The notes below the pieces were generated by a model. The model was given only the letters and a program-made list of their open reading frames with translations. It had not been told where the DNA came from and did not search any database. A DNA stretch of 64,000 bases from Gammaproteobacteria bacterium (GTDB lineage: Bacteria; Pseudomonadota; Gammaproteobacteria; Ga0077536). The first letter of the stretch is position 1. Each line of letters opens with the position of its first letter. A program made the position numbers and the translations under genes. The DNA lies in assembly GCA_041984235.1 (NCBI GenBank), contig JBHIYN010000005.1, forward strand, positions 195,083 to 259,082, read 5' to 3'. This document shows positions 27,773-63,894 of this stretch, in pieces.

Positions 27773-28522
27773 ATGAACGCGACCGCAATTCTGTATCGCA
27801 TGGTTACCGACGAGCACGTCTGCCCATATGGCCTCAAGGCCAGGCACCTGCTGCGCAGAAACGGATACGAGGTCGACGACAGGAAGCTGACCTCGCGCGA
27901 GGAGGCCGAGTCGTTCAAGCGCCGCGAGGGCGTCGATACCACGCCCCAGGCGTTCGTGGATGGCGAGCGTATCGGCGGCTACGAGGACGTCCGGCGATTT
28001 CTCGACCAGGGCGGCGAAGTGGCCGAGGACGACGAGACGACCTATCAGCCCGTCGTTGCCGTTTTCGCCACCACCTTCCTCATGGCCCTGGCGGCAGCCT
28101 GGGCCATGACCGGCGAGGTCTGGACGATGAAGGCGGCGGAATGGTTCGTGGCGTTCTCGATGTGCGTGCTCGCCATCCTGAAGCTCCGCGATCTCGAGAG
28201 CTTCTCCCTGCAGTTCCTGAACTATGACCTGCTCGCGCAGCGATACGTGCCTTACGCGTACTTCTATCCGTTTGCCGAGGCCGCGGCCGGCGTGCTGATG
28301 ATCGCCGGTGCCGTTATCGCGGTGGCGGCGCCGCTGGCCCTTTTCATCGGCACGGTGGGCGCCGTTTCGGTGGCGAAGGCGGTCTACGTGGACAAGCGCG
28401 AGCTGCGCTGCGCGTGCGTCGGCGGAAACTCCAACGTCCCGCTGGGCGCGATTTCGCTGACCGAGAACCTCATGATGATGGCCATGGGCACGTGGATGCT
28501 GGCCTCGCGCGTCGTTGCCTAG
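27773..28522 (+). CDS. glutaredoxin-domain / MauE-DoxX-like membrane-domain fusion protein
   Basis: 249 aa. The N-terminus has a Grx fold (CPYG active-site motif, ...TTPQAFVDGERIGGYEDV). The C-terminus has four hydrophobic helices with a CACVGG motif, as in MauE-family thiol-redox membrane proteins. An RBS-like GGAGGAG lies 9 nt upstream. Confidence 0.7.
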   Translation: MNATAILYRMVTDEHVCPYGLKARHLLRRNGYEVDDRKLTSREEAESFKRREGVDTTPQAFVDGERIGGYEDVRRFLDQGGEVAEDDETTYQPVVAVFATTFLMALAAAWAMTGEVWTMKAAEWFVAFSMCVLAILKLRDLESFSLQFLNYDLLAQRYVPYAYFYPFAEAAAGVLMIAGAVIAVAAPLALFIGTVGAVSVAKAVYVDKRELRCACVGGNSNVPLGAISLTENLMMMAMGTWMLASRVVA

Positions 28523-28532
28523 CGGCGCGCGC

Positions 28533-28560
28533 GGAGCCGGGCCCTTCCCGGCTCGGGCCC
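28533..28560. terminator. GC-rich hairpin between convergent genes (grx-mauE and pcoB)
   Basis: gagccgggcccttcccggctc forms a 7-bp stem (GAGCCGG/CCGGCTC). It sits in a 105-bp convergent intergenic gap with no U-tract, so it could act as a bidirectional intrinsic-like terminator. Confidence 0.3.
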
Positions 28561-28627
28561 GGTGCACAGCCGGGCGGAACGCCGGCCGACCGTCGGACCG
28601 GGCGCTGGCACCGCGAGGACCGGGCCG

Positions 28628-29368
28628 TCAGAACCAGAACCGCACGCCGGCGACGACGGCGGTAATCGACGCCGGCTCCCCGGCCCGGCGCGCGATGTCC
28701 CGCGTCTCGCCGTGCAGGCGCTCCCACGAAATACCGATATAAGGCGCGAACTCGCGGCGGACCTGGTAGCGCAGGCGCAGCCCGAGTTCGGTCGCGTTGA
28801 GACCGCTGCCGCGGTCCACCTGCGGGATGTCGGAGAAGGCCGCGTTGAGCTCCAGGCGCGGCTGCAGCACGAGGCGCTGGGTAATGTTGACGTTGTACTC
28901 GACCTCCAGTCGTGCCGTGACCTCGCCGTCCTCGTCGATGAACAGTGCGCTGTCGAGCTCGAACTCGTAGGGAACCACGCCCTGGATGCCGAGCACCGCG
29001 TGCGTCAGCTCGGGGTTCGGGCTGAAGTCGTGACGCAATCCCACCTGCCAGTCCCAGAACGGCGCGATCAACCGGCTGTAGAGCAGCTGCAGCTCGGCGC
29101 TCTCGGGCGTGTGCCCGAACTCGCCTTCGCCCTCCGTCTTGACCCAGGCCCGGTTGCGCCCGCTGCCATACCAGCCCTGCACGTCCCACACGTAGCCATC
29201 GACCTCGTCGGCGAAGCGCGTCTCGACCCGATCGCCGAGCAACATGCCGTAATGGGTGTGGTGCATGGGGGACGGCCAGTCGTCCGGCGTTCCGGCCGGG
29301 TCGTAGGCGGGCGCCTGAAGTGCGGCGGTCAGCGCGGCGAGCCCCGCAAGATAATGCACGGACTTCAT
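28628..29368 (-). CDS. pcoB: copper resistance protein B (outer-membrane beta-barrel)
   Basis: 246 aa from MKSVHYLAGLAALTAALQAPA (signal peptide). CopB-like body with a conserved C-terminal ...VAGVRFWF. The CAT was verified at 29366-29368. Confidence 0.85.
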   Translation of the reverse strand: MKSVHYLAGLAALTAALQAPAYDPAGTPDDWPSPMHHTHYGMLLGDRVETRFADEVDGYVWDVQGWYGSGRNRAWVKTEGEGEFGHTPESAELQLLYSRLIAPFWDWQVGLRHDFSPNPELTHAVLGIQGVVPYEFELDSALFIDEDGEVTARLEVEYNVNITQRLVLQPRLELNAAFSDIPQVDRGSGLNATELGLRLRYQVRREFAPYIGISWERLHGETRDIARRAGEPASITAVVAGVRFWF

Positions 29369-31188
29369 GCGGAGCCCTCCTGATTGACCCGCACGACCCG
29401 GAACATGCCCATCTCCATGTGGTAGAGCAGGTGGCAGTGGAACGCCCAGCGGCCTGGCGCATCGGCCGTGATCAGGGCGGATACCCGCGCCGCGGGCATC
29501 ACGTTGATGGTGTGCTTGCGCGGGATACGCCGGCCGTGTCCGTTCTCCAGCTCCATCCACATGCCGTGCAGGTGTATGGGGTGGTTCATCATCGTGTCGT
29601 TGACCAGGATGAGGCGCAGGCGCTCCTGGTGGTAGAACTCGATCGGGCCGTCGACCTCGTGGAACTGCTTGCCGTCGAACGACCACATGTAGCGCTCCAT
29701 GTGCCCGGTCAGGTGCAGCTCGATCTCCCGGCCCGGTTCGCGGTCGTCGAAGCGGTCGTCGCGGCGGACGAGGTCGCGGTACACGAGTACGCGGTGCGGC
29801 ACGCCGACGAGACCGGTGCCACGCTCGCCCAGCCGGTCGCGCTGGAGCTGCGCGACACTGATGTTGCCGGGGCCGTGGTCATCCTCGTCGTGGCGCGCGA
29901 CGACCGGCCCGAACCCGTTCATGTCAGCCATCGCCATGCCGGCATGACCGCCATGGCCGGCGTGCCCTGCGTGGGCGCCCGCACCGCCAGCGGTGCCGCC
30001 AGCCGCGTCGTGCCCGCCTTCTCCGCCGCCGTGCATCTGCATGTCCATGCCCATGTCGACCATGTCCAGCAACGGGCGCGGCCTGAGCGGGGGGATTGGC
30101 GCCGACAGGCCCGGCGCGGTGGCGAGGGTACCGGCAGCATAGCCGCTGCGATCCATGCTCTCGGCCATCACCGTGTAGGCGACCTCACCGCGCGGCTCGA
30201 CGACGACGTCGTAGGTCTCGGCAACGCCGATCTGGAATTCGTCGGTCTCGACCGGCTCGACCGGCTGGCCGTCCGCCGCGACCACCGTCATCGCCAGCCC
30301 CGGAATGCGCACGTTGAAGAACGACATCGCCGAGCCGTTGATGAAGCGCAGGCGCACGCGCTCGCCCGGGGCGAACAGGCCGGTCCAGTTACCGGCCGGG
30401 TGCAGGCCGTTCATGAGGTAGGTGTAGGTAGCACCGGTCACGTCGGCGATGTCGGTTGGCATCATGCGCATGCGATCCCACGCCAGCTTGGTCTGCCACG
30501 CTTCGCGCGCCGTCATGTCGCCGGTCGCGAACAGGGAGCTCGCCGTGAACTGCTGGAAGTTGTAGTAGTCGCTCATCTTCTTGAGCTTGGCCAGCACCCG
30601 GTACGGGTCCTCGAAAGTCCAGTCCGTCAGCATGACGACGTAATCCCGATCACAGGCGACGGGATCGGGCTCGCGCGGGTGCACGACGAGCGGGCCGTAC
30701 ACGCCGGATTGCTCCTGCAGGCCGGAGTGGCTGTGGTACCAGTAGGTGCCGCTCTGGACGACGGGGAAACGGTAGCGAAACGTCTCTCCGGGGGCGATAC
30801 CGTGGAAGGTGACGCCGGGAACGCCGTCCATCTCGAACGGCAGCAGGATGCCGTGCCAGTGGATCGAGGTGGACTCGCCGAGGTGGTTGGTCACGTCGAG
30901 GATGACTTCACGCCCTTCCTGCCACTCGAGCAGGGGCCCGGGGACTGAGTCGTTGATCGTCATCGCCTGCCCGATACCGCCTGCGATATCGAGACGCTGC
31001 CCGCGTATTGCCAGCTCGAACCGGAGCGGCCCCGACGACGCGCGAAGGCCCCCTCGTGAAACCGGTGCGCCGTGGACCCAGCCCGGCAGCATATTGCCCA
31101 CGCCGAAGGCCGCAGTGCCCGCCAGAGCCTGCCGGACGAAACGGCGCCGGCTTTCGAGTGTTGCACCGGGCTGATGAGAACGTGACAT
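29365..31188 (-). CDS. pcoA: periplasmic multicopper oxidase CopA/PcoA (Tat-exported) with a Met/His-rich segment
   Basis: 607 aa from MSRSHQPGATLESRRRFVRQ (Tat motif). Cu-binding motifs HWHG, HSH, HPIHLHG and HCHLLYHMEMGM. Methionine-rich insert MDMQMHGGGEGGH...HAGHAGHGGHAGMAMADM. Overlaps the pcoB start by 4 nt. Confidence 0.9.
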   Translation of the reverse strand: MSRSHQPGATLESRRRFVRQALAGTAAFGVGNMLPGWVHGAPVSRGGLRASSGPLRFELAIRGQRLDIAGGIGQAMTINDSVPGPLLEWQEGREVILDVTNHLGESTSIHWHGILLPFEMDGVPGVTFHGIAPGETFRYRFPVVQSGTYWYHSHSGLQEQSGVYGPLVVHPREPDPVACDRDYVVMLTDWTFEDPYRVLAKLKKMSDYYNFQQFTASSLFATGDMTAREAWQTKLAWDRMRMMPTDIADVTGATYTYLMNGLHPAGNWTGLFAPGERVRLRFINGSAMSFFNVRIPGLAMTVVAADGQPVEPVETDEFQIGVAETYDVVVEPRGEVAYTVMAESMDRSGYAAGTLATAPGLSAPIPPLRPRPLLDMVDMGMDMQMHGGGEGGHDAAGGTAGGAGAHAGHAGHGGHAGMAMADMNGFGPVVARHDEDDHGPGNISVAQLQRDRLGERGTGLVGVPHRVLVYRDLVRRDDRFDDREPGREIELHLTGHMERYMWSFDGKQFHEVDGPIEFYHQERLRLILVNDTMMNHPIHLHGMWMELENGHGRRIPRKHTINVMPAARVSALITADAPGRWAFHCHLLYHMEMGMFRVVRVNQEGSA

Positions 31189-31339
31189 GAGCGCTCCTCG
31201 TGAATTTTTCGCCGCGCGGCAGAACATTGGCGGCGGATCGATGATGTTGAACAGGTTACGCGCCGTGCGGCTCAGCGGCTTTCCTGCGACGGTCCGCGTG
31301 CTGCTGCCAGCCGAATAGCCGCGAGCGTCCTGCCGACGA

Positions 31340-31386
31340 TGAATCACGCGACGATTCGTTCTGCGATTCGTTCTGCGATGCGTTCA
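31340..31386. repeat. tandem 12-bp direct repeats (GATTCGTTCTGC x2 plus a degenerate third copy) in the pcoA upstream region
   Basis: cgattcgttctgcgattcgttctgcgatgcgttcatgg lies 150-200 bp upstream of the pcoA start codon. Confidence 0.5.
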
Positions 31387-33602: not shown

Positions 33603-33656
33603 TTCAGATGGCCAGGCCCCGCTTCGTCGCGGGCATGCACGCGGAGCGCTGAGATC

Positions 33657-34886
33657 GTGTCCACTCTGCCGGCAACAGCCGCGATCATCGGTGCCGGCCT
33701 GACCGGCCTCATGCTCGCTATGCGGAACGTGCGCACCAGCCCTGGGTGGCGCGCGACGGTGACTCCGCTGGCCTCGATCATCGGCAGCGGATTCCTGATC
33801 ATCGCGCCGATGCTGCACGCGCTGACCGGACGCTGGTCGCTGCTCGCCATAGCGGGCCTGTCCGCGCTAGCGTATGCCATTGGCAGCGTAATGCGCTTCA
33901 ACGTCGCTGTCGCCGAGCCGCGCCTGCAGGCGCGCCATGATACCATGCTGAATCGCGTTGACCGCGTCTCGCAGCTCGTGCTCGGCGCGACCTACGCCGT
34001 GTCTGTTGCGTTCTATACCAGTCTCTTCGTGGCTTTCCTGGCCCAGCGCGTACCCGCGCTCGAGCTGTCGCAGGCGGCCGTGACCAGCGTCGTGCTGATC
34101 GCGATCACGGCAGTTGCCTGGCGGCGGGGCACGCGGGGACTCGAGTCGATCGAGGTCACGGCGGTCACCGTCAAGCTCGCCATTATCGCCGGCGTCCTGG
34201 CCGGGCTCGCGCTGTACGACGCGCAGCGCGCGATGCCGTGGTTCGAACATGCACCAATCGCCGACTTCTCGGCCTGGGACACGGCGGCCGCGCTCGCCGG
34301 CATGCTGATGGTGGCGCAGGGCTTCGAGACCACCCGCTTCACCGGCCACCTCTACCCACGACAGGTGCGCGTGCGCGCCGCGCGGCGCGCGCAGCTCGTC
34401 GCCGCCGGGATCTACGTCCTGTTCGTCGGGCTGACCTGTCCGCTGTACCTCGAGTTTCCCATCGCCGTGCTGACCGAGACGACGGTAAGCGAGACCCTCG
34501 GCCACGTGGCGCTGGTATTTCCGTCGATGCTGTTCGTCGCCGCGGCGGCCAGCCAGCTCAGCGCGGCGCTTGCCGATACCATCGGCGGCGCCGGACTGAT
34601 CACGGAGGCGGCGCCGGTTCCGCTGGGTGACACCGCAGGCTGCATGCTCATGGTCACCACGGCTCTGGCGATCGTCTGGACCACGGATGTCTTCGGCATC
34701 ATCAACGTCGCCTCGAAAGGCTTCGCGCTCTACTACCTGCTACAGGTGCTGGTTACCGTTCGCGTGCTGCTGGGCGATCCGCACCGCGCCCGCCGTCGTC
34801 GCGTCGCCGGGCTCGCCGGCTGCGGCCTGCTGGCGGCGGCGTTGTTGTTCGTGGTCGTCTTCTCGCGCGCCGCGCCGCATGCATGA
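33657..34886 (+). CDS. polytopic membrane protein of unknown function (10 or more predicted TM helices)
   Basis: 409 aa, strongly hydrophobic throughout with no recognisable motif. Tightly linked to ppk2 upstream and the lycopene-cyclase-domain gene downstream. Confidence 0.5.
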   Translation: MSTLPATAAIIGAGLTGLMLAMRNVRTSPGWRATVTPLASIIGSGFLIIAPMLHALTGRWSLLAIAGLSALAYAIGSVMRFNVAVAEPRLQARHDTMLNRVDRVSQLVLGATYAVSVAFYTSLFVAFLAQRVPALELSQAAVTSVVLIAITAVAWRRGTRGLESIEVTAVTVKLAIIAGVLAGLALYDAQRAMPWFEHAPIADFSAWDTAAALAGMLMVAQGFETTRFTGHLYPRQVRVRAARRAQLVAAGIYVLFVGLTCPLYLEFPIAVLTETTVSETLGHVALVFPSMLFVAAAASQLSAALADTIGGAGLITEAAPVPLGDTAGCMLMVTTALAIVWTTDVFGIINVASKGFALYYLLQVLVTVRVLLGDPHRARRRRVAGLAGCGLLAAALLFVVVFSRAAPHA

Positions 34887-41121: not shown

Positions 41122-43343
<2,222 letters not shown>

Positions 43344-43347
<4 letters not shown>

Positions 43348-43754
43348 TGCGGCGGTGTGACACTCTCGATGAGATAACAAATGGAATCGCCGACCGGGAT
43401 CCCGTCCGGCAGCTCGCGCCAGGCGCGCAGTGCGTGCTCGATGCGCTGCTGCAGCGCGCTGGCCTCGTCCAGCGCTTCGCGGTTCTCGCGCACCCGCCGC
43501 GCCAGGATCTCGCGCGCACGGGGGCACGGCGAGCGGCCGCGCTCGCTGGTGGCGAGCAGCTCGGCGATCTCGTCGAGGCGGTAGCCAAGCAACCGGGCCC
43601 TGCGGATGAAGGTGACGCGGACCAGATCGGCGTGGCCGAAGCGGCGGTATCCGTTGTGCGGGTCGCGCGCGGGATGCAGCATGCCCATGCGCACGTAGTA
43701 GCGCACGGCATCCGCCGTCACCCCGGCCGCGCGGGCGAGCTCGGTCACGGTCAT
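43344..43754 (-). CDS. cueR: MerR-family Cu(I)-responsive regulator (CueR/HmrR-like)
   Basis: 136 aa from [29 protein letters not shown]-terminal metal-binding loop Cys (...RSPCPRA...). Overlaps the copA start (ATGA). Confidence 0.8.
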
Positions 43755-46437: not shown

Positions 46438-49400
46438 TCAGGACGCGCCGGGCGTCACCGGGGAGGCGGCAGCGGCGGGCGTACGCCGCTTGATGACCAG
46501 CAGGCAGGCCGCACTCAGCAGCATCCATAGCGAGGCCGGCAACGGCACCGCCGCGGCAACGAGCCGGATGTCCGTGCCGTCGTTGAGCAGCGCCAGGCTC
46601 AGCCCGCTGACCGTCGGCAGGTTGATCTCGAAGAACGAGCCGCTGATCAGCGCCGCCGAGATAAGGTGGAAGACGTCGCCCGCCTGCGGCACGAAGCCGT
46701 CATAGAGCACGACATCCATGGTGCCGCCCATGATGTCCAGTGCACCGCCCACGTCGACCGCGTCGTAGCCGTCGGGCGGCGCGCCTGCCAGTTCGCCGCG
46801 GTCGTAACCGCCGATCTCGAACAGGGAATCGAGAGCGACGCCGAACACCGCGTCGCCGGCGATGTTGACGTAACCGGGGCTGTTGCCGGGGCGCAGGTCG
46901 CCTTCGAAGTGCACCGTGCCCGACCCGGTGTAGCTGCCGCTGCCACTGGCCGCGCCGAGGATCACGGTGCGCGCGCCGGCGGAGGTGCGGATCTCGGTGC
47001 CGTTGTGCACCAGGTCGTCGAAGATCGTGGTGGTGCCGCCGCCGGAGGTGATGATGCGACCGGTACCCTGGTTGTCGATGTCGCCGAACAGGTTGGCGCC
47101 GCCGCCACTGAAGGCCATGACGCCCTGGTTGACGACGTTTGCCGCGATCAGGGTGCCGTGCCCGGCGATGAAGGCACCGGCCTCGTTGTCGAGCGCGGCG
47201 GTGAACTCGGCGACGCCGCCGAACAGGTGCAGGTCGCCCTGGTTGACGGCACCGGCCGCATTGACCTGCAGGGTCTCGCCGGCGTTCTGACGGATCTCGC
47301 CGTTGGGGCCGTTGACGAACTGGCCGGCGACGTCGATCCGGCCACTGCCGGTGACCAGGCCCTCGTGGTTGTCGAAGCTCTGCGCCTGCAGCCGCGCGCG
47401 ACCGAAGTCGCTCATCACCAGCGTACCGCCGTTGGTCACCGCGCCGGTGGTGAAGACCCCGCGCTCGACGGCAACCACCCCTCCGTTGTCGATGTCCAGC
47501 GATGCGGAACGCGCCACCCCGCCGCTGACGCTGAGATCACCGCCACCGAAGACCCGCAGGGCGTTGTCGACCTCCAGGGTGCGCGTGGCTGAGACGTCGA
47601 GCACGCTGAAGGCCGGGCTGGTACTGGCGATCGTGAGCCCGGCGGCGCCGGTCACGCGCAGCTTGCCGGCACGCCAGTCGAAAATGCCGTCCACGTCCAG
47701 GGCGCCGGTGCGCAGCACGCCCTGGTCCAGCGTCAGGATGTTGAACGGCGCAATGGTCGTCGTGGCGGCAACCTCGAGCAGCTTGAACCCATCCACGGTC
47801 AGGGCGCTGCCGAACAGGCCGGAACCGTCGAGCGCAAAACCGGTGGGCCCGGTGATCGCGAGGTGACCGCTGGTCCAGTTGAAGGTGCCATCGCCGGCCG
47901 TGCCACCGGGCGCGGTCGCGGTCTTGCCGATGGCACGGACGCTGAAGAAGCCGCTCTCGAAGTTGACCGTGCCGCCGGCGAAGACGTCGAGTTCCGCCGT
48001 CGAGTGCACTTGTGCATCGTCGAGGATGTCGAGCGTGCCACTGCCACCGTCGCGTCCCAGCGAGAGCGTGTCCACCCACAGCGTCATGCCGCTGCCGGTT
48101 CCCTCGACCGTCACCCGACCAAAGCCGCCGGCGGCGACACCGATGGCGGTTTCTCCGTCCGGGTCGAGGATGTCGCCGATCACGATGTCACCGCCGCCGT
48201 CGATACGCAGGGTGCCGGAGCCGGCGTCACCGACCGTGAGCGCGGCGGCCGACGCGAAGCTGCTGCTGCCGTGGATGCCGACGTGACCCGTAGCGCCGTC
48301 GAATGCACCGATCCTGATCAGCCCGGCGTCCTCGACGCGCGCCCACGCGCTGACGTCCACCGTCCCCGTTCCGAAGAAGCCGACATCGATAGCGCCGCCG
48401 CCGGCGCTCCAGGTCGTGCCGCCGCCACTCAGCGCGACCAGGCCGGTGGCGTCGGCGCCGGCGCCGATGCGGAACACGCCCTCCGTGGTGAGCCCGGCGC
48501 CGCCCGTGATCACGGCCTCGGCCCGGCCCAGGTGTCCCAGCAGCACGGTGTCGGTGATGCGCAGGGACGAGCCCTGGTCCACCGTGAGCGCGGCCCGGCT
48601 CGCTGCGTCGGTGTGCGCAAACCAGACCTGTCCGGACCAGGTCACGTCGCTTGCGGAGAGGATTTCGACCAGGTTGCCGCTGTCGTCGCTGCGCCCGAAT
48701 TTACTCTGCCCGGTCGCCACCCAGGTCGAGGCTTCCTCGATCCGGATGCGGCCGCTGTGCACGTTCGCCCCGCCGCTGACGACCGACGAAGCGCCGCGGA
48801 CGTAAAGATAGCCCCGGCCATCGTTCGAGGGTGTCGCGCTGCTGCGCGCCGGGCTGCCCATCGCGAGTGTGCCGCTACTCGTCCAGGTGCTGCCGTTGTC
48901 GACGATCACGGTGCTCTGAGCGGTGACGTTGGGGGCCATCGACGTCGCACCGTTGGTCAGCGTGGCACCGTGGTCGACCACCAGTTGACCGAAAGCCCGG
49001 TTGCCGATCGTCAGGTTCTGGTCGATGTCCAGCCGACTGCCGGCGCCGTCGACCCGCACTTCGCCGCTCGCGTTGGCGCTGCTGCCGTTGAGCTGGTCGC
49101 CGAGTGTCAGGTCGCTGGCGCTGACCACGCCACCGGCGAGCACGTCGAGAGTGCCCTGGCCGTTGTCGCCCACGGTGAGAGCGCCGCTCAGCGTCCACCT
49201 GCTGCCGGCGCCGCGCACCGTCGCCGCGCTCTTGTCACCGAACACGCCATCGTCGGCGATGATCCCAATGGAGCTGTCGAGCAGCGCGCCGTCGCTGACG
49301 ATGAGCGTGCCGAAGTGCCCGTCGCCGACATGTACGCGGCCGGTATCGAACACCGTGCCGTTGCCGGCAACCTCGAGACGGCCACGGGCCTGGTGGCCGA

Positions 49401-51363
49401 CGTAGACCGTGCCGGCCAGCGCATCGCTGCCGCCACCAACCGTCAGCAGCGCCTCGCCGCCGGACGCCGTCGCACCGATCCGCACGTCACCGGCGTCGAG
49501 CACCGACGCCGGCCCGGACACGCTAACGCTGCCGTTGCCGTTGATGCGCGTGCCGCCGCGCGCGACGCTGGCACCGTTGTCGATCTGGAACGCAGTGCTG
49601 CCCGACGCCGTGCCAACGATGAGATCGCGCCCGTCCAGGCCGCTCACGAATGCACCGTTGGTCAGCGTCACGGCGCCGCCCTCGAAGACGAGATCGCTGT
49701 TGTCCAGCGTTTTCACCTCGCCGCTGCCGGAGCGGCCGCCGTCGACGACGATGGCGGACGCGGCCGGCATCGACTGCGGATCGAAGTGCAAGCCGCCAAG
49801 CAGGAGATCGGTGGAGGTCATCGCGCCGAGCGGCGCCGAGCCGCGGACGATCATGTCGCCGGCCACGTCGACATCGGCGAAGGCCAGGGTTTGCAGACCA
49901 TGCGAGACGATGTAGTCACCGCCGACGTTGAGCATGCCCCTGAAGCGCAGCTCGGCGCCCTCACCGATCTCGACGTCGCCGGTGACGTCGACGACCACGC
50001 CCGTGTTGCTCGTGCTCTCGAGCAGCGCGGTGGGGCCATCGGTTCCGGAGACGTTGCCCAGCGTGATCGCGCTCGCCGACAGCGAGCCGCCCGATTCCAG
50101 CGTGATGGTGCCGTCGCCACCGCTGTTGCCGCCCGGCGCGACCGACGTGCCGCGACCGACCAGGACGTCGCCGGCGAGAACCTGCGCGCCGTCGCTGATG
50201 GTCAGCGCCGCGCTGCCGAAGCCGGCTACGGTGAGCTCACCGACGTCGAGCAGCGTCCCGGCACCCGAGACCGACACGCTGGCGCTGCTGCCGGCCTGCT
50301 CGGCCAGCATCGTGTCCCCGGCCTCGATGAGCGCGCCGGAGGACAGTGAAACAGTGGCGCTGCCCGCGCGTGCCAGGGTCAGGTTCGCATCACCCGTCGT
50401 GCCCACGGTCCAGCGCGTGCTGCTGCCGCCGAGCGCGACGGTGCCGACGCCCGAGCCCTGGTCGCCGACCACGGCCAGGCCGGTGCTCTCGATCACGCTG
50501 CCCTTGTAGGCCTGCACGTGCGCGGTGCCCGAAGTGCCGAGGTATAGGCTGCCGTCATTGCTCCAGGTACCACCGCTGCTCGCGCCGGCGCCGAAACCGA
50601 GAAAGACCCAGCCGGTACTGCCGTTGGCGAAGCCGACGCGCCCGGTCGTGTTGCTGACGCTGCCGCCGTCCTTGATCACCAGCGTGCCGTTGCTGCCGTT
50701 GTTGTGACCGACGTAGAGGAAGCTGCTGCCGGTCATGACGGCGCCGTCATCGACCTCCAGGCGCCCGCTGCCGCAGCGGCCGACGTCGACGATGCCGGTG
50801 TCGAGCCGGCTGCCAGCGCCGGTGACGACGATCTCGCCGCTGGATCCGCCGGCGTAACCGATGTTGACGCGCCCGCTGCCGTTCCTGAGCACGCGCGCGC
50901 CATTGGCGATCGTGAGCTCGCCATCGCCGTTGTAGCCGCTGTTCAGGGCGGTGAAGAAGATCTGCGACGCGCTGCCCGTGACCAGCCCGGTGCCGCTGCC
51001 GTTGCTGCCGAAGCCGAAATTGAGGTCGACGTTGGTGTTGATGGTTCCGCTGTTGATCGTGAGACCGCCGATGCCGTTGTCACCGACGTTCAGGTTGTTC
51101 TCGAATATGACCCGGGCGGTGGAACGATCGACGGTGAACGAACCGCCGTTGTCCAGCGTGACCAGCGCATAGGCCTGGATCACGTTCAGCGACAGGTCGA
51201 GGACCAGGTCGTCGCTGGCCAGCGGCACCCCGTTGGGGCTCCAGTTGGCAGCCGTGAACCAGTCGATGTCGGCGCCACCGTTGTCCCAGTGGCGGGTGAG
51301 GGCGTGGGCCGGCGCCGTCAGCAGCAAAGCCGCGGCCGCAAACCAGTTAGCGGATCTCATCAT
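46438..51363 (-). CDS. giant (about 1640 aa) secreted beta-helical repeat protein with a PEP-CTERM-like C-terminal sorting signal (autotransporter-associated beta-strand repeat type)
   Basis: Signal peptide MMRSANWFAAAALLLTAPAHA. N-terminal W/N-rich cap (HWDNGGADIDWFTAANWSPNGVP). Hundreds of G/S/T/A/V/N-rich beta-strand repeats. C-terminus ...AAAVPLPASLWMLLSAACLLVIKRRTPAAA gives a VPxP motif, a TM helix and a basic cluster. The long antisense ORF 47863-50349 is a composition artefact. Confidence 0.8.
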   Translation of the reverse strand: MMRSANWFAAAALLLTAPAHALTRHWDNGGADIDWFTAANWSPNGVPLASDDLVLDLSLNVIQAYALVTLDNGGSFTVDRSTARVIFENNLNVGDNGIGGLTINSGTINTNVDLNFGFGSNGSGTGLVTGSASQIFFTALNSGYNGDGELTIANGARVLRNGSGRVNIGYAGGSSGEIVVTGAGSRLDTGIVDVGRCGSGRLEVDDGAVMTGSSFLYVGHNNGSNGTLVIKDGGSVSNTTGRVGFANGSTGWVFLGFGAGASSGGTWSNDGSLYLGTSGTAHVQAYKGSVIESTGLAVVGDQGSGVGTVALGGSSTRWTVGTTGDANLTLARAGSATVSLSSGALIEAGDTMLAEQAGSSASVSVSGAGTLLDVGELTVAGFGSAALTISDGAQVLAGDVLVGRGTSVAPGGNSGGDGTITLESGGSLSASAITLGNVSGTDGPTALLESTSNTGVVVDVTGDVEIGEGAELRFRGMLNVGGDYIVSHGLQTLAFADVDVAGDMIVRGSAPLGAMTSTDLLLGGLHFDPQSMPAASAIVVDGGRSGSGEVKTLDNSDLVFEGGAVTLTNGAFVSGLDGRDLIVGTASGSTAFQIDNGASVARGGTRINGNGSVSVSGPASVLDAGDVRIGATASGGEALLTVGGGSDALAGTVYVGHQARGRLEVAGNGTVFDTGRVHVGDGHFGTLIVSDGALLDSSIGIIADDGVFGDKSAATVRGAGSRWTLSGALTVGDNGQGTLDVLAGGVVSASDLTLGDQLNGSSANASGEVRVDGAGSRLDIDQNLTIGNRAFGQLVVDHGATLTNGATSMAPNVTAQSTVIVDNGSTWTSSGTLAMGSPARSSATPSNDGRGYLYVRGASSVVSGGANVHSGRIRIEEASTWVATGQSKFGRSDDSGNLVEILSASDVTWSGQVWFAHTDAASRAALTVDQGSSLRITDTVLLGHLGRAEAVITGGAGLTTEGVFRIGAGADATGLVALSGGGTTWSAGGGAIDVGFFGTGTVDVSAWARVEDAGLIRIGAFDGATGHVGIHGSSSFASAAALTVGDAGSGTLRIDGGGDIVIGDILDPDGETAIGVAAGGFGRVTVEGTGSGMTLWVDTLSLGRDGGSGTLDILDDAQVHSTAELDVFAGGTVNFESGFFSVRAIGKTATAPGGTAGDGTFNWTSGHLAITGPTGFALDGSGLFGSALTVDGFKLLEVAATTTIAPFNILTLDQGVLRTGALDVDGIFDWRAGKLRVTGAAGLTIASTSPAFSVLDVSATRTLEVDNALRVFGGGDLSVSGGVARSASLDIDNGGVVAVERGVFTTGAVTNGGTLVMSDFGRARLQAQSFDNHEGLVTGSGRIDVAGQFVNGPNGEIRQNAGETLQVNAAGAVNQGDLHLFGGVAEFTAALDNEAGAFIAGHGTLIAANVVNQGVMAFSGGGANLFGDIDNQGTGRIITSGGGTTTIFDDLVHNGTEIRTSAGARTVILGAASGSGSYTGSGTVHFEGDLRPGNSPGYVNIAGDAVFGVALDSLFEIGGYDRGELAGAPPDGYDAVDVGGALDIMGGTMDVVLYDGFVPQAGDVFHLISAALISGSFFEINLPTVSGLSLALLNDGTDIRLVAAAVPLPASLWMLLSAACLLVIKRRTPAAAASPVTPGAS

Positions 51364-51364
51364 C

Positions 51365-51580
51365 TCAGGCCTCCCCGTCATCGGCCGGCGGCGGGCCCGG
51401 CTCGTCGTCACCCTGGCGACTCAGGAGCTCGAGCAGCTCGGTGACGCTGCGAAAGGCGCGCGCGGTGCCGCGCACCGGGTCCTCGACAATGCCGGCAGCG
51501 GCGGCGCCATCGCTGCCGCGCCGGTAAACGCGCACCACCATGCTGTCGCGGCATGCCGACAAGGCCGTGGATTTCGCCAT
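51365..51580 (-). CDS. small hypothetical protein (71 aa) between the STAND regulator and the PEP-CTERM gene
   Basis: MAKSTALSACRDSMVVRVYRRGSDGAAAAGIVEDPVRGTARAFRSVTELLELLSRQGDDEPGPPPADDGEA. Stop is 1 nt before the giant gene's ATG. Preceded by the 11-bp-periodic direct repeats. No family recognised. Confidence 0.35.
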   Translation of the reverse strand: MAKSTALSACRDSMVVRVYRRGSDGAAAAGIVEDPVRGTARAFRSVTELLELLSRQGDDEPGPPPADDGEA

Positions 51581-51635
51581 GTGGAACCTCCCTGCACCGC
51601 CCGCCGGTGCACCGCACCTACGCTAGGGGAGGCGT

Positions 51636-51658
51636 GTCACCGATGGGTCACCGATTGG
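51636..51658. promoter_or_regulatory. tandem direct repeats with 11-bp periodicity (GTCACCGATGG / GTCACCGATTGG): candidate SARP/OmpR-type activator binding site
   Basis: gtcaccgatgggtcaccgattgg sits 56-78 nt upstream of the 51580 start codon, in the gap just downstream of the STAND-SARP regulator gene. An overlapping short inverted repeat ccgattggcgatcgg follows. Confidence 0.4.
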
Positions 51659-51677
51659 CGATCGGGGCGGAGGCGGG

Positions 51678-54600
51678 TCAGTGGCGGCGGGACAATGCCG
51701 CGTAGATTTCGCGTGTCGGTGGCGACGGCTGCAGACCGAAGGCGGTCGCCAGGACGCGCTCGCAGGCGCGGTAGAAGCCGGCCGCCTCGCCGAACTGCTG
51801 CATCGCCACAGCGGCGCGCATCGCGCCCTGGTAGAACGACTCGGCGAGCGGGTCGAGCTCGATCCCGCGCCGGTACACCGCGAGCGCGCGGTCCGCTGCA
51901 CCGGTATCTTCGAGATGCGCGCCGTGACCATTGACCAGGCGCAGCACGCGCGAGCGCAGGCGCTCGCGCGTGCTGAGCAGCCAGGGCTCGGCGCTGTCGG
52001 CCTCGAGGAAATGCCCCTGGTACAGCGCGATCAGGACGTCCGGCGCGAACGGCTCGTCCAGGGTCGGCAGGCGGCGGGTCGCCTCGTCGAAGACCAGCGC
52101 ATCGACCCAGCACCGGCGCGGGTCCAGCGAGACGGTCTGCTCCTCGGTGACCAGGTTGGTCTCGCCCAGCAGCTTGCGCAGGCGGTACAGCGCGGTGCGG
52201 TACGCACGCTGCGCGGCATCGGCATCGGCATCGGCATCGTAATCACCCCACAGCGCCTCGACCAGCCGATGCTGGGACACGCGCGAACCGCCGAACGCGA
52301 TGATCGCCTTGAGCAGTTGCAGCGAGCGGCGTGGCGCCTTGCGCCCGAACTGGAGCGGCTGGCCGTCACGCAGGATCTCGAACCCGCCCAGCGTGCGTAC
52401 CGTGACCTCGTACGGCCATGCCAACGGGTCGACCTGTGCGTGCGGCGGCGCAAGCCCGAGCACGCGAATCGTTTGCCGGGCATAGGCCGGCTCGATGTCA
52501 TGGCGCAGGGCGCACGCCAGCACTCGCGCCAGGCCGGCCGCACTGAAGAACAGCGTGCGGCGCAGCGAGAGGCGCGCGGCAAGACCGAGCACCCCTTCCA
52601 GGACGCGCCGCGCATGAGCCTCTCTGCCCCGTCGCAGGGCGAGCTCCGCACCCAGCAACCCGGCCATCACCACGATCGGCGTGCAACCTTCACGATGCGC
52701 CGTGCGGCGCGCGCGGGCGAGCGCGCGTAGCGCTGAGGCGGCGTCGTCGCCATCGATGTCGATGCGCGCGATGCCGAGCAACGCGTACATGTGCAGCAGG
52801 CTGGTCGCGGACTCCTGCGGCAGGGCCAGCGCCGTGTCGAGTGCCGCGCGCGCGGCGAGCGGCTGCCCGCGCAACCATTCGAACCAGGCGGTCTCCAGGT
52901 GGAAGCGCGCCGTATGGTAGCCCCCGCGCGGCGGCGCGACGTCACGCAGGCGAGCGGCAGCCGCAGCGCCGGCGGCGACGTCACCCGCCGCGAAGGCGGC
53001 CAGGTTGGTCGCCGTCGCTATCAGGTGATCCAGCGTATGCAGACCGCGCTCGCGTGACTCGGACCAGCAGTCACTGACGGCGCGGTCGATCCAGTTGCTG
53101 TCGTCGCCGTAGAAGAACTCGAACTGCGCGCGCAGCATTTCCCACATGATGCGGGCGAAGGGAATGCGCGCAGTTTCCTCCAGGTCGGCGCCACGCGCAG
53201 CGATGAGTGCTCGTGCGGCGGGCGTCTCACCCCGGATCGTGTGCGCGAACAGGATCTCGGCGGCGACCATCACGCGGCGATGCCGGGAAGTTTCCGTCGT
53301 CAGCAGCGTACAAGCCTGCCCCAGCCATTCATCGAGGCGCGGGTGCCCCGGGAAACACAGCGCCATGGTGCCGAGCACCCCGGGCACCGCAATGCCACGC
53401 AGCGACGGCGCAGCCGGCCCCCCCTGCTCGTCTTGCAGGGCGAGGAGTTCTGCGAGGTCAGTGCCGATCCCCGCGAACTCGTGGGCCATGACGCGACTTT
53501 CCAGGATCGCGACCAGCGCCTGGAAGTGCCCGGGCACGTTGCCCTGCCGCGCATATGCCTCACGCGCCGCCTGCAGGCGCGCGATTCCGGTGGCCGGCTG
53601 CGTGATGACGTCGACAAGCCCGAGCCACAGGGACAGCGTCGCATCCTCGTTCACGATCGCGGGCGGGATCCGCTCCAGCCAGTTCTTCATGCGCGGGTGG
53701 CGCCCCCCGCGCAGCAGCTCCGGGCCCACCGCCGCACACAGCCGCGACACGCCCGCCCAGTCCGCGACGCGAACGCGGACATCGATGGCGGCTTCGGTGT
53801 CCCCCGCGACCTCGAGCATCGCGGCGGCCTTCTCGTGCAGGTCACGCCAGGCATCGGGCCCGAACGAGGCATCCCCTTGGCCACGCAGGAATTCACGGAA
53901 CAGCGGGTGCAGCACGTAAGTGGTCTCGCCGCGCGCTAGGTGAGCGGTGGTGAAGAAGTTGCGCCGCGCGAGATCGGGCAGGATGCGACTCGCCTGCTCC
54001 TGCTCCGCGAGGCGATCACCGAGCGCCGGCACGATGCGATCCCAGATCGCATTGGCAACGAGGTAGCGCTGCGTTGCTTGCGGCATGCGGCGATAGATTT
54101 CGCCGGCGAAGTAGTCGAACACCTCGTGCAGCGGTAATGACACGGCGCGGTCCCGCGCGTCGCCACCGAGCGCGGCCAGCTCGGTCGCCAGCACGAGGCC
54201 CGCGATCCAGCCGTCGAAACGAGCCAGCTCGGCGGGCTCGACGGCCACCTTGCGGCGGCGTGCGGCAGCGCGCAGTTCGTCCTCGCTCAGCCTCAACTGC
54301 GGCCAGCCGATGACCGCCATGCGGCCGTTGGCCAGCAGTGCGGCCATGGACTCGAACGGCTGCTCCCTGCTGACCATGAACAGGTTCGGATCCCCGGACA
54401 ATTCCCCGGCCGCGGCACCGAGCAAGGCCTCGACGCCCGGTACGTCCGCGATCGCGTCGACGTTGTCGAAGACGAGCACGAAGTCGCCGGGCAGGGCGGC
54501 GTACAACGTGCGGAAGTAGCTGCGTGCGAAGCTCGGTACCGCAGCGAGATACTCGACCGTCAGTTGTGGCAGATCGAGCCGGCGGCGCGGGAAACGCCGC

Positions 54601-54851
54601 CTGACCGCCCGGCTCAGCTGCTCGAAAAAGCGCGACGGATCGCGATCGTCCTCGTCGAACGCGTACCACACGACCCTGCGCTTGCTCACGCGCGCGTACT
54701 CCGCGACCAGCGTGGTCTTGCCGCAGCCCGCGGGCCCGCCGATCCAGACCAGCGGGCGCATGGCGGCTTCGCCGATCAGTTCGACGAGTCGTTGCGGCAC
54801 CGCCAGCCCCTGCGTGCGCGGCGGCGTGTACTTGGCGAGATTGCCGGACAT
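51678..54851 (-). CDS. STAND-class P-loop NTPase transcriptional regulator with C-terminal OmpR/PhoB-type winged-helix plus BTAD (SARP) domains
   Basis: 1057 aa. N-terminal Walker A GGPAGCGKTTL and Walker B-like VLVFDNVD. A long helical/TPR-like middle region. C-terminal wHTH (TLGGFEILRDGQPLQFGRKAPRRSLQLLKAIIAFGGSRVSQHRLVEALW) followed by BTAD-like helices (AYRTALYRLRKLL...YQGAMRAAVAMQQFGEAAGFYRACERVL). Confidence 0.8.
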   Translation of the reverse strand: MSGNLAKYTPPRTQGLAVPQRLVELIGEAAMRPLVWIGGPAGCGKTTLVAEYARVSKRRVVWYAFDEDDRDPSRFFEQLSRAVRRRFPRRRLDLPQLTVEYLAAVPSFARSYFRTLYAALPGDFVLVFDNVDAIADVPGVEALLGAAAGELSGDPNLFMVSREQPFESMAALLANGRMAVIGWPQLRLSEDELRAAARRRKVAVEPAELARFDGWIAGLVLATELAALGGDARDRAVSLPLHEVFDYFAGEIYRRMPQATQRYLVANAIWDRIVPALGDRLAEQEQASRILPDLARRNFFTTAHLARGETTYVLHPLFREFLRGQGDASFGPDAWRDLHEKAAAMLEVAGDTEAAIDVRVRVADWAGVSRLCAAVGPELLRGGRHPRMKNWLERIPPAIVNEDATLSLWLGLVDVITQPATGIARLQAAREAYARQGNVPGHFQALVAILESRVMAHEFAGIGTDLAELLALQDEQGGPAAPSLRGIAVPGVLGTMALCFPGHPRLDEWLGQACTLLTTETSRHRRVMVAAEILFAHTIRGETPAARALIAARGADLEETARIPFARIMWEMLRAQFEFFYGDDSNWIDRAVSDCWSESRERGLHTLDHLIATATNLAAFAAGDVAAGAAAAARLRDVAPPRGGYHTARFHLETAWFEWLRGQPLAARAALDTALALPQESATSLLHMYALLGIARIDIDGDDAASALRALARARRTAHREGCTPIVVMAGLLGAELALRRGREAHARRVLEGVLGLAARLSLRRTLFFSAAGLARVLACALRHDIEPAYARQTIRVLGLAPPHAQVDPLAWPYEVTVRTLGGFEILRDGQPLQFGRKAPRRSLQLLKAIIAFGGSRVSQHRLVEALWGDYDADADADAAQRAYRTALYRLRKLLGETNLVTEEQTVSLDPRRCWVDALVFDEATRRLPTLDEPFAPDVLIALYQGHFLEADSAEPWLLSTRERLRSRVLRLVNGHGAHLEDTGAADRALAVYRRGIELDPLAESFYQGAMRAAVAMQQFGEAAGFYRACERVLATAFGLQPSPPTREIYAALSRRH

Positions 54852-61239: not shown

Positions 61240-62316
61240 CTATAGCCGATGCGCCGCGGCGTCCGCGGCGGACGCCAGGCACGCCTCGGCCGCGGTGTAC
61301 TGCGCGGCCAGGCTGTGCGCGGTGGCGAGCTGGGCCCGGGTGCGGGCGAGGTTGTGCGCGCTGCGATCCGGATAACGGGTGGCATCCCAGGCGAAGTAGC
61401 GCTCCTCCAGCGCGTCGGCCAGGAAGCGCATGGCGAGTTCGAGCTGGATGAGGCGGGTCGCGGGGAGCACCGCCGCGCGCTCGGTGGCGTCGAAGGCGCT
61501 GCCCGCGGCGGCACAGTAGCCGGCCATCGCCGCCGCGAACAGGTCGAGGTCGAAGTAAGCGTCAGGCGCGTCCTCGCCGCGCGGGTTGCACCACGACCGC
61601 ATCGCGTCGCCGAGCTCCAGAGCGAGCGGCATGCGCGCCAGGGTGTCGAGATCGATGAGACAGATCGCGGCCTCGCCGGCCGGCTCGAACAGCAGGTTGG
61701 AGATCTTGGGGTCGCCGTGTACCACCCGTGGCGGTCCGGGCTCGAACGCGGGAACCGCGGCCAGCGCGCGCTCGATCGCCGCCCCCAGCTCGAGCGCCTC
61801 GGCATGTGCCGGATGCGCCCGGGTGTCCTCGAGCACCGCGGTGAGATGGGTGCGATGCCGGGCCACATCGTGCACCGGCGGCCGCTCCGCGGCGAGCGGC
61901 TCGTCGAAATCCTGCAGCGCAGCGTGAAAACGCGCCAGCAGCGCGCCGGCCGCACGCGCCTCGCCGGTCCCGCCGAGCCGGTCGACGGCGCGTCCGGGTA
62001 CGTAGGTCAGCAGGCGCCACCAGCCGTCGTCGAGGCGTACCGAGTGTGCGCCGGTGCGCGTCGGCACCAGGCGCGGGGTAAGCAGTCCGCGACGCGCCAG
62101 GTGCGCGGTCACGCGTGCGAGGTTGAGATTGACGCTGTCGGCGAACACCGGGTGCAGGCGTTGCAGCACGAACCGCTCGCCGCCGTCCGCCGTGACCAGC
62201 ACGGTGAGGTTGATCAGCCCCTGCGGAATGCGTTCCAGCCGCGTGGCCGCAAGTGCGTAATGGGCGAGCGCCGCGCTCGCCGCCACGTGCCACCGTTCTG
62301 CCTGTGCCTCACCCAT
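61240..62316 (-). CDS. aminoglycoside phosphotransferase (APH)/protein-kinase-like phosphotransferase family protein
   Basis: 358 aa. APH-family catalytic motifs VVHGDPKISNLLF and ICLIDLDT (DxD), with a Brenner-type H-G-D. Confidence 0.75.
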   Translation of the reverse strand: MGEAQAERWHVAASAALAHYALAATRLERIPQGLINLTVLVTADGGERFVLQRLHPVFADSVNLNLARVTAHLARRGLLTPRLVPTRTGAHSVRLDDGWWRLLTYVPGRAVDRLGGTGEARAAGALLARFHAALQDFDEPLAAERPPVHDVARHRTHLTAVLEDTRAHPAHAEALELGAAIERALAAVPAFEPGPPRVVHGDPKISNLLFEPAGEAAICLIDLDTLARMPLALELGDAMRSWCNPRGEDAPDAYFDLDLFAAAMAGYCAAAGSAFDATERAAVLPATRLIQLELAMRFLADALEERYFAWDATRYPDRSAHNLARTRAQLATAHSLAAQYTAAEACLASAADAAAHRL

Positions 62317-62370
62317 GGCCCGCCTCCGTCAGGGTGGCATTATAGGTTCCGCGATGTGCAGGATGCGCCG

Positions 62371-63894
62371 ATGATCGATCCCCTCACCCTGCGCCGGGCG
62401 CTGGCGCTGCTGCTGGCCGTGCTCGCGGGCTGCAGCACGGCGCCGCGCCTGCCGCTGCCCGCGGACGCAGGGTTCGAGGCCTGTCACGCCCGTTTCTCCG
62501 CCAGCGATCGTGCCATCGCCGCGGCCACGGTCCGCGATGCCGGGGCGGCGCGCATCCCGGGCGCGCCGTTCCTGCGCGTCGATCGCTTCCTCGCGGCACG
62601 CGCCGCGGAGGTGCAGGACGCGGCGCAGCGCAGCGCGTGGCTGACGCGGGCCGCGGCGCTCGACGCCACCGCCCGCGCCGGCGAGCTGGCCCGCCTCGGC
62701 GCCGCTGCCGGTGAGCGCGAGGCGCTGAACGCCTGCCGCTCACGGCTGGTCGCGGCACTTGCCGCGGACGACGCGGCCTGGGACGCGCTGCGCGCGCGGA
62801 TCGCGGTGCCGGACGCCTACGCCACCTGGCAGCGGGTGCTCGGTCTCTACCCGCTCAGCGCACGCCTCGTACTCGCCGGCGTGCGCCGCCTGCAGGCGCG
62901 GGAGACGGTCTCCGCCGTGCCACCGGACGCGGCCGCCGTCCGCAGCTACGCGCTGCCGCGCCCGGTCACGCCCGGCGTAGCGCTGCCCGCGCGCGACGCG
63001 CTGGGCATGGCCGTACCCGGAACACCGGCCCTGGCGGCGCTGTTCGCCCGGCACGCACCGCAATTCCACGTCGCCACGGCGAGTGCCGCCGATCACATTG
63101 GCCGCGTCGGCTTCGACGGCGCTGGCGCGCCAACGGTCGACCCTGCCGTGCCCACCGTCTACACCGCGCTGTCGCATACCCGCTTCGAGGGCGAGACCCT
63201 GCTGCAGCTCAGCTACTCGGTGTGGTTCCCGGCGCGCCCGCGCCGCCACCCGCTGGACCTGCTCGGCGGCGAGCTCGACGCCGTGACCTGGCGCGTCACG
63301 CTGGACCGCGACGGCGAGCCGCTGGCCTACGACACCATGCACAACTGCGGCTGTTACCACATGTTCTTCCCCGGACCGCGGCTCGCCGCGCGACCGCCCG
63401 CGGATGCGCTGGAGGAGCCGCCCTGGATCCCGTTCACCCTCGCCGTCGACGGCAGCGCGCCGCCCGCGATCCATCTCGCCGCGGGCACACACTACGTGAC
63501 GGCCGTGGTCGCCGGCGCCGACGCGCCTGCCGGGCAGGTCCTCAGGTCGGTGCCGCTATCCGAACTGCGGCAGCTGCCGCTGTCGGGCGGCACGGTCACC
63601 AGTCTCTACGACGAACGCGGGCTGGTGCCGGCCAGCCGACGCCTGGAACGTTTCGTGCTGTGGCCCATGGGCATTGCCTCGGCCGGCGCCATGCGCCAGT
63701 GGGGCCACCATGCCACGGCCTTCGTCGGTCGCCGCCATTTCGACGACCCCGACCTGCTGCAGCGTTACTTCAGGCGCCGCCCGGTAACGCCTCAGGGTCC
63801 GAGTACGCCGTCGAAGAGATCGAGCGTGAACGGCAGCACGCCGTCGGCGACCGGTGCCTCCTCCGCCGCGGCGGCCTCGATCGCGGCACCCTGA
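62371..63894 (+). CDS. large hypothetical lipoprotein
   Basis: From MIDPLTLRRALALLLAVLAGCSTAP (lipobox LAGC). Ala/Arg-rich, about 470-507 aa. The 3' end is uncertain because the last 100 nt overlap a minus-strand ORF. Confidence 0.55.
   Translation: MIDPLTLRRALALLLAVLAGCSTAPRLPLPADAGFEACHARFSASDRAIAAATVRDAGAARIPGAPFLRVDRFLAARAAEVQDAAQRSAWLTRAAALDATARAGELARLGAAAGEREALNACRSRLVAALAADDAAWDALRARIAVPDAYATWQRVLGLYPLSARLVLAGVRRLQARETVSAVPPDAAAVRSYALPRPVTPGVALPARDALGMAVPGTPALAALFARHAPQFHVATASAADHIGRVGFDGAGAPTVDPAVPTVYTALSHTRFEGETLLQLSYSVWFPARPRRHPLDLLGGELDAVTWRVTLDRDGEPLAYDTMHNCGCYHMFFPGPRLAARPPADALEEPPWIPFTLAVDGSAPPAIHLAAGTHYVTAVVAGADAPAGQVLRSVPLSELRQLPLSGGTVTSLYDERGLVPASRRLERFVLWPMGIASAGAMRQWGHHATAFVGRRHFDDPDLLQRYFRRRPVTPQGPSTPSKRSSVNGSTPSATGASSAAAASIAAP

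Follow-up and report, generated by a model that had tools for sequence, protein, structure and literature searches.

The window analysed here, a stretch of 64,000 nucleotides (nt) from a Gammaproteobacteria bacterium (contig JBHIYN010000005.1), carries on its minus strand four parts that run head to tail: a gene for a large regulator, a pair of direct repeats with an 11-bp period, an open reading frame (ORF) of 71 amino acids (aa) and a gene for a giant protein of 1641 aa. An independent gene call on the identical public contigs returned the same three genes. The regulator gene (51678..54851, minus strand) encodes 1057 aa with the P-loop GGPAGCGKTTL. The first of two ATCGGTGAC repeats, placed exactly 11 bp apart, begins 22 nt past its stop codon. 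Repeat 1 (ATCGGTGAC on the coding strand, GTCACCGAT) lies at 51647..51655 and repeat 2 (ATCGGTGAC) at 51636..51644, both on the minus strand and just past the regulator stop, where a first-pass annotation of this DNA had placed them. A predicted -10 hexamer, TAGCGT (51620..51625, minus strand), stands 8 nt past the second 11-bp repeat unit. The small ORF (51365..51580, minus strand) runs from an ATG at 51580 to a TGA at 51367-51365, and the sequence holds a Shine-Dalgarno motif, GGGAGG (51587..51592, minus strand), 6 nt ahead of that ATG. The giant gene (46438..51363, minus strand) has its ATG at 51363, one base beyond the TGA of the small ORF, so that the two genes abut as first described and are laid out as one operon. 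A promoter and terminator scan found no terminator and no consensus promoter between the three genes. The comparison covered 160 related loci, 80 regulator-anchored ones and an independent set of 80 from metagenomes in which the small ORF served as the anchor.

The regulator and its SARP module

The regulator is predicted to consist of a MalT-type nucleoside triphosphatase (NTPase) with winged helix and arm (residues ~9-410), a MalT-like helical-repeat sensor (residues ~420-800), an OmpR-type winged helix (residues ~810-916) and a BTAD domain (residues 917-1056). AAA_16, WHD_MalT and BTAD scored above threshold in Pfam, the last (PF03704) with 56.9 bits against a cutoff of 22.1 over residues 942-1053. 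In NCBIfam, residues 9-408 aligned to MalT positions 1-413 (E 2.5e-35); against the MalT equivalog the regulator scored 121.8 with a cutoff of 537 and is thus not a member. We further compared a family profile of 27 full-length regulator homologues with the PDB. Profile positions 9-411 matched the MalT nucleotide-binding module 8bob (residues 5-409, 1e-62), positions 581-790 matched MalT domain III (1hz4, 6e-10), and positions 825-1064 matched AfsR 27-264 (5e-20) and EmbR 16-256 (4e-12), which covers the whole SARP module including the winged helix. Walker A K45/T46, Walker B D129 and R162 were invariant among the 27 homologues, and these intact motifs suggest that the regulator may multimerise in an ATP- and inducer-dependent manner.

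The AlphaFold2 model of the regulator (mean local confidence score pLDDT 85.7, pTM 0.77) was all-helical at residues 420-800 and showed OmpR-type topology at residues 816-916, with the BTAD helices after it. Its winged helix comprised strands at 816-828, helices at 841-852, 860-868 and 877-895, of which the third is long, and a wing at 900-909. A Foldseek search with this model returned MalT (TM-score 0.74), EmbR, and AfsR in RNA polymerase complexes (TM-score 0.62-0.64, 24-25% identity). No match to the GerE/LuxR helix-turn-helix was found in the regulator, whose C-terminus is a winged helix plus BTAD. The SARP module occupies the last ~250 residues and not the N-terminus, as it does in the described small, medium and large SARPs. 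Profile, model and Foldseek agree with the first-pass annotation, which had read an N-terminal P-loop NTPase and a C-terminal winged helix with BTAD as the reverse of the SARP order. On sequence and modelled structure, the regulator is a MalT-type STAND protein in which the LuxR domain is replaced by a complete SARP module. It is neither a MalT equivalog nor a classical SARP, it is a hybrid of both, and by analogy it may work like both.

STAND NTPases with TPR sensors include the Avs defence proteins, and Avs4 was among the distant fold matches in Foldseek, which raises the question of whether STAND NTPase, small protein and large protein together serve in defence against phages or in some other conflict system and not as a transcription unit for a surface protein. 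PADLOC gave only a weak P-loop match (mad8, E 7e-4) and none for the other two proteins; the effector domain here, a SARP module, binds DNA by type and comes with an operator that is conserved, the cargo of related loci consists of ordinary secreted proteins, and the flanks hold housekeeping and metal-resistance genes. We consider a conflict system very improbable.

This architecture is not rare. We scored 184 full-length relatives of the regulator (~30% identity) and counted more than 542 regulator loci among species-representative genomes, a scan that used the pattern [YF]HPLFR.. (the window regulator has LHPLFR). The relatives come from Desulfobacterota, Nitrospirota, Gamma- and Betaproteobacteria, Acidobacteria and Planctomycetota, and their source labels read 'MalT/DNA-binding SARP family' or 'BTAD domain-containing putative transcriptional regulator'. 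They form a large family that databases already label. The first-pass annotation had not recognised the arrangement as described; the architecture itself proved common, and a literature search for an N-terminal STAND with a C-terminal SARP found no relevant paper, an absence that is no proof of its being undescribed. A scan of metagenome contigs by the regulator alone found no close relative.

The operator and the recognition helix

Exact 9-bp repeats at 11-bp spacing occur twice in the 64-kb window, so the window alone does not set the pair apart from chance. In the 80 regulator loci, two, sometimes three, direct repeats with an exact 11-bp period stand ahead of the first gene after the regulator, and this conservation shows that the repeats are not a chance feature. 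Their consensus across related loci was (A/T)ATC(T/C/G)GT(A/G/T)(A/G)(C/G), that of 40 strict operators ATC(T/C/G)GT(A/G)(A/G)(C/G), and overall AATCTGTAAC; the window operator, AATCGGTGACC CATCGGTGACA, is one variant of it, and repeat 1 fits the family consensus. Sites under the strict definition occurred at 0.317 per kb in the 1.8 kb past the regulator stop and at 0.0084 per kb elsewhere in the 80 loci, a 38-fold enrichment. Such a site was carried by 37 of 77 loci, so the repeats do recur at related loci, and among the metagenomic loci anchored on the small ORF, 45 of 75 had a strict operator within 300 nt.

The 40 sites were chosen without any use of -10 positions. A -10 element nevertheless appeared at a fixed offset, with T at +31 in 36/40, A at +32 in 38/40 and T at +36 in 29/40, often with TG at +28 and +29 (TG-n-TAnnnT). 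The 11-bp units of related loci end 8-9 nt short of this element and cover the -35 position, a layout also known from AfsR and further SARPs (PMC11301090). By the same geometry, repeat 1 of the window is predicted to be the upstream SARP half-site (about -43 to -35), repeat 2 the half-site overlapping -35, and TAGCGT the TAnnnT element found at the fixed offset elsewhere. The hexamer at the window's -35 position, ACCCAT, shares none of its six bases with TTGACA, and a consensus scan of the intergenic region found no sigma-70 promoter. The lack of both fits an activator-dependent promoter.

The covariation of operator and regulator was assessed in 66 non-redundant regulators, each paired with its own operator. 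Profile column 888, which is R885 of the window regulator in helix 877-895 (motif AYRTALYRLRK), covaried with repeat positions 6-8 at a normalised mutual information of 0.74, the highest of 416 variable columns. The next-ranked columns, 909 and 892, both lie in the winged helix as well. Read by eye, the relation between residue and repeat was as follows: D at column 888 went with GTAAGT, A with GTAAT or GTACC, T with GTGAC or GTGAT, K or R with GTAAC or GTGACA, and E with GTAGG, GTGGG or GTGAGC. That the recognition helix tops the ranking is beyond what shared ancestry alone would be expected to give. With the statistic uncorrected for phylogeny, the covariation is supportive and not conclusive. 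Conservation, the fixed distance to -10 and this covariation together support the view that the 11-bp repeats would behave as a SARP-type operator, the geometry that the first-pass annotation had proposed for them.

The same position of the repeats could suit a repressor that blocks RNA polymerase at -35 until a ligand frees it. GSU1771 of Geobacter, with a C-terminal SARP module, is genetically a negative regulator of several genes (PMC10599522). Set against this, a -35 hexamer with 0/6 matches and a weak -10 are typical of activator-dependent promoters, BTAD and the AfsR-like geometry belong to characterised activators, and MalT is itself an activator. We regard repression as quite unlikely and activation as the expected mode of the regulator.

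At some regulator loci there is more than one operator, from two up to four (L024:13352 and 14229; L028:4407 and 5443; L078:5564-8510); a separate secreted-protein gene follows each of them, and the two operator-led genes of L024 are paralogues. One regulator can thus serve several promoters.

The small protein and the secreted cargo

The GC content of the small ORF at codon positions 1, 2 and 3 is 0.75, 0.58 and 0.85, as is typical of coding sequence. An exhaustive search found 14 small relatives of its product, and a profile search extended the family to at least 1633 clusters, all annotated as hypothetical and none with a Pfam domain; Pfam and NCBIfam hold no family for the protein. Its core reads YxVRIYRR, a loop, GxVE.P and then AF.s..EL..IL, with Y19, G30 and F43 invariant in the family alignment and with variable, often basic C-terminal tails. 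The AlphaFold2 model (pLDDT 67.5, ~80 in the core) has three strands and a helix (beta-beta-beta-alpha). For the scan of loci we used an alignment of nine sequences, since that of 37 was too diverse. A family member was present in 31 of the 80 regulator-anchored loci, nearly always on the same strand and 100-1700 nt from the regulator stop. In the reverse direction, 55 of the 59 loci anchored on the small ORF and with enough upstream sequence had the regulator C-terminus upstream on the same strand, and reverse look-ups from the small ORF led to a regulator in 4/4. The neighbourhood comparison that the first-pass annotation had called for thus bears out the co-conservation of the two genes. 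On this sequence evidence the 71-aa ORF can be taken as a real, conserved gene. Its 5' leader folds no better than shuffled sequence (z 0.2).

These counts also bear on the alternative by which the repeats and the 71-aa ORF are both chance features of a GC-rich intergenic region. Two such repeat pairs in one window and the frequency of short ORFs at 70% GC speak for it. Against it, motif, spacing and position are kept in over 80 loci whose genomes span 40-70% GC, and the amino-acid sequence of the small protein is conserved across its 1633 clusters. This reading, already refuted, retains practically no probability.

The small-protein domain was found once in tandem duplication (P0126, 137 aa) and once fused to a weak PilZ domain (P0243, 167 aa, L171:633-1136); the fusion hints at a link to cyclic di-GMP signalling. 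Toxin-antitoxin genes (MazE/PIN, PhdYeFM/ParE, HicB) lie beside or inside several cassettes (L090:2346-7000, L087:2888-3452, L089:1951-2579), and in L090 they part the regulator from the small ORF by 4.7 kb. The regulator genes of L087 and L088 were called in pieces, which could reflect frameshifts or assembly errors.

The giant protein begins with a Sec signal peptide (MMRSANWFAAAALLLTAPAHA) and contains at least ten stretches of the 49-residue repeat TIGR04393, which is associated with T5SS and PEP-CTERM proteins (213.7 bits, cutoff 23). Pfam shows no domain in it and the PDB no relative; its composition is marked by 17.8% Gly and 2 Cys. A beta-helical fold would be expected from the repeat family. 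The protein ends in a PEP-CTERM/VPLPA-like tail, VPLPASLWMLLSAACLLVIKRR plus 14 further residues, in which VPLP-ASLWMLLSAACLLVI-KRR provides a P-x-P motif, a transmembrane helix and a basic cluster. These 14 residues seemed unusual; residues past the basic cluster also occur on the related PEP-CTERM cargo of L122, where there are at least five (5-10 in the portions shown). TIGR02595 was not listed among the matches of the giant protein, and a literature search for TIGR04393 or VPLPA-CTERM returned one unrelated mention.

No homologue of the giant protein was found beside any of the 160 related cassettes, which places it outside the conserved core, as variable cargo. The first-pass annotation had joined all parts in one module; regulator, operator and small ORF hold together across loci, and the giant does not belong to what is conserved. 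What recurs downstream is export. Of 54 distinct downstream proteins, 48 start with a signal-like hydrophobic segment, and nine of these 48 have a lipobox; among control ORFs the share with such a start is 35%. The cargo ranges from ~160 to 2170 aa, and in the regulator-anchored loci its domains include fn3/BACON/PKD, RCC1/Ig/multihaem cytochrome, peptidase C10 and PG-binding/CHAP, with further matches to DUF5050 and InlB-type (Flg_new_2) repeats. In loci without a small ORF the operator stands directly ahead of a signal-peptide gene. Some of the cargo consists of PEP-CTERM proteins that pass their thresholds: the cargo of L097/L098 passes TIGR02595 (28.6 against 16 bits), and the tail from L121/L122, scanned alone, passes VPLPA-CTERM (26.5 against 25.35). 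L122 (6998-11472) has a regulator fragment, an operator, a small ORF and then five consecutive PEP-CTERM/VPLPA-type genes, whose products end VP(L/V)PAA(A/V)WLFGSGLLGL...RRK. The locus has the appearance of an entire operon of exosortase-type substrates governed by a single cassette.

Conservation ties the small ORF, and not the downstream gene, to the regulator, and one may ask whether the small ORF is the regulator's sole direct target and a pleiotropic effector, as afsS is for AfsR, with the giant expressed independently. The AfsR-afsS precedent has just such a small ORF directly downstream with SARP repeats in its promoter, and the small ORF of L090 stands apart from any large cargo gene. 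The spacing of the genes argues the other way. In the window a 1-nt gap precedes the giant ATG, with no terminator- or promoter-like site between, and in most related loci the gap from the small ORF to the downstream signal-peptide gene is typically 8-16 nt; where the small ORF is missing, the operator stands directly before the secreted-protein gene. An effector role of the small ORF alone is, in our judgement, unlikely.

A widespread cassette and its surroundings

Regulator, operator, small ORF and then a secreted protein form a conserved order that, as judged from sequence, extends across Proteobacteria, Desulfobacterota and Nitrospirota and recurs in hundreds of bacteria. We consider it probable that the locus in the window is one copy of a widespread three-part cassette (MalT-SARP activator, operator and small ORF) that drives a secreted cargo. 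By inference from MalT and AfsR, binding of a ligand to the helical-repeat sensor and of ATP to the NTPase would produce an active multimer, two of whose SARP winged helices would bind the repeats in head-to-tail orientation and from the same side of the DNA. The repeats would then stand in for the missing -35 element, and the activator would recruit RNA polymerase. From the layout, a single transcript is expected to carry the 71-aa ORF and the 1641-aa gene. The giant would be exported by Sec and would probably reach the cell surface through its PEP-CTERM/VPLPA-like anchor, the sorting pathway being itself a presumption. The small protein would stay in the cytoplasm and, in an AfsS-like position, would most likely partner the regulator or modulate it by feedback. 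Our guess is that it modulates the regulator, on the model of AfsS, which acts with AfsR, or of the MalT-directed proteins MalY, MalK and Aes; otherwise it may bind DNA.

The first-pass interpretation, an ATP-gated switch for a very large surface adhesin or S-layer-like protein, is partly supported and largely right, except that the giant is variable cargo and its PEP-CTERM assignment is unproven. ATP gating, and activation over repression, are expected by analogy with the characterised regulators, and an adhesin or S-layer role of the giant is likewise presumed.

Several points weigh against this interpretation. In Pfam, Trans_reg_C remained sub-threshold on the single regulator sequence (16.7 against 26.2 bits); the matches of the 27-homologue profile settle the winged helix despite this. 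The window -10 hexamer lies 1 nt nearer than the consensus and is without TG, and an overlap with -35 is in principle compatible with repression. The covariation statistic ignores phylogeny. No close orthologue of the whole locus was found, and the best regulator identity was 33%. The tail of the giant has the tripartite layout of a PEP-CTERM signal but stays below the cut-offs of both PF07589 (19.0 against 20.7) and TIGR03370, VPLPA-CTERM (17.9 against 25.35). A Pfam or NCBIfam scan of the ~40 window ORFs detected no exosortase, PrsK/PrsR or extracellular polysaccharide (EPS) genes, in agreement with the first-pass annotation, so there is no exosortase within the 64 kb. The PEP-CTERM reading of the tail gains plausibility because related cassettes drive PEP-CTERM proteins that do pass the thresholds.

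A bolder extension of the cassette reading is tentative, and we would sooner doubt than assert it. The small protein may be the indispensable partner in a new kind of switch made of two proteins and spread over several phyla, binding either the regulator's sensor, as a feedback loop, or DNA through its arginine-rich sheet, as AP2/MBD domains do. Together with a recognition code that relates helix residue 885 to repeat bases 6-8, it would define an unnamed family of at least 1000 members controlling the lineage-specific surface and secreted proteins that are displayed.

The closest known arrangement is AfsR with afsS. The AfsR site consists of two direct repeats, which together span 22 bp, overlap -35 and are located 8 nt upstream of -10 (PMC11301090). 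In both systems an ATPase and a TPR-type sensor act through a SARP module within a large regulator, and the promoter of a small ORF directly downstream of the regulator carries SARP repeats, in the window as judged by sequence. The two differ in that the SARP module comes last in the window and first in AfsR, the NTPase belongs to the MalT clade here and is NB-ARC in AfsR, and the window type occurs in Gram-negatives whereas AfsR occurs in actinomycetes. The small protein also appears unrelated to AfsS, with a single beta-beta-beta-alpha core and no internal repeats, a distinction drawn without direct comparison to the AfsS sequence, and its ORF heads an operon for secreted proteins. With MalT the regulator shares the order NTPase, winged helix/arm, helical-repeat sensor and C-terminal DNA-binding domain; it has a winged helix plus BTAD in place of MalT's LuxR-type helix-turn-helix, and its operator consists of paired 11-bp repeats where MalT uses MalT boxes.

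SARP-LAL hybrids of the PimR type, in actinomycetes, also unite a SARP module and a LAL-type ATPase in one polypeptide (bioRxiv 10.64898/2026.09.02.748808). There the SARP is N-terminal and LuxR is kept at the C-terminus; in the window the SARP is C-terminal and LuxR is absent. GSU1771 of Geobacter sulfurreducens resembles the window regulator in having a C-terminal SARP module in a proteobacterial-type regulator linked to surface or extracellular functions, and its regulon includes PEP-motif exosortase substrates; no small-ORF partner is reported for it (PMC10599522). We rejected GSU1771 as a member of the family, since its N-terminus is a response-regulator receiver and not a STAND NTPase (PMC10599522). 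The giant protein resembles PEP-CTERM/exosortase substrates (TIGR04393, TIGR02595, TIGR03370) in its repeats, signal peptide and tripartite tail, and differs from them in a tail below curated cut-offs and in the lack of an exosortase, EPS locus or PrsK/PrsR within 64 kb.

SARP activators have been studied almost only in actinomycetes, as switches of antibiotic synthesis. The relatives described here make up a large non-actinomycete family that carries the SARP module on the C-terminus of a MalT-type sensor and brings with it a predictable operator, an apparent residue-to-base code and a conserved small protein that no database describes. In environmental bacteria that are hard to grow, its cassettes stand ahead of large surface proteins, PEP-CTERM proteins, proteases and multihaem proteins. 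Should these predictions be confirmed, one could use the operator motif to predict, with nothing but sequence, what hundreds of uncharacterised regulators control, and the small protein would represent a novel type of STAND-regulator partner.

Upstream, the locus is flanked by genes for EthD, a glutathione transferase and luciferase-like oxygenases, and downstream by genes for a PNPOx-family protein, an amidase, a MerR regulator and a copper-type P-type ATPase. The three genes thus have unrelated functions on both sides. Metal-resistance genes occupy 19410-31383 and 41122-43754 of the window. They include a cation-diffusion facilitator, a CusCBA-like set of outer-membrane factor, fusion protein and RND pump (21062-27282), a multicopper oxidase (29365-31383) and a MerR-type regulator (~43344-43754, minus strand) followed directly by a P-type ATPase with heavy-metal-binding domains. 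Two polytopic membrane proteins, at 17976-19127 and 33603-34886 (both plus strand), are predicted to have ~8 and ~11 hydrophobic segments. Both lack a Pfam match and neither scores as an exosortase; for one, NCBIfam gave a weak match (E 7e-4) to a family named 'cell surface glycopolymer formation'. An 881-aa ORF at 61246-63894 (plus strand), with a GC of 0.81 at codon position 1 and no Pfam or NCBIfam match, overlaps long opposite-strand ORFs at 61240-62328 and 62740-63555. The sole Rfam match of the window is one tRNA gene at 17871-17954 (plus strand, 59.6 bits), which adjoins queA, tgt and secDF.

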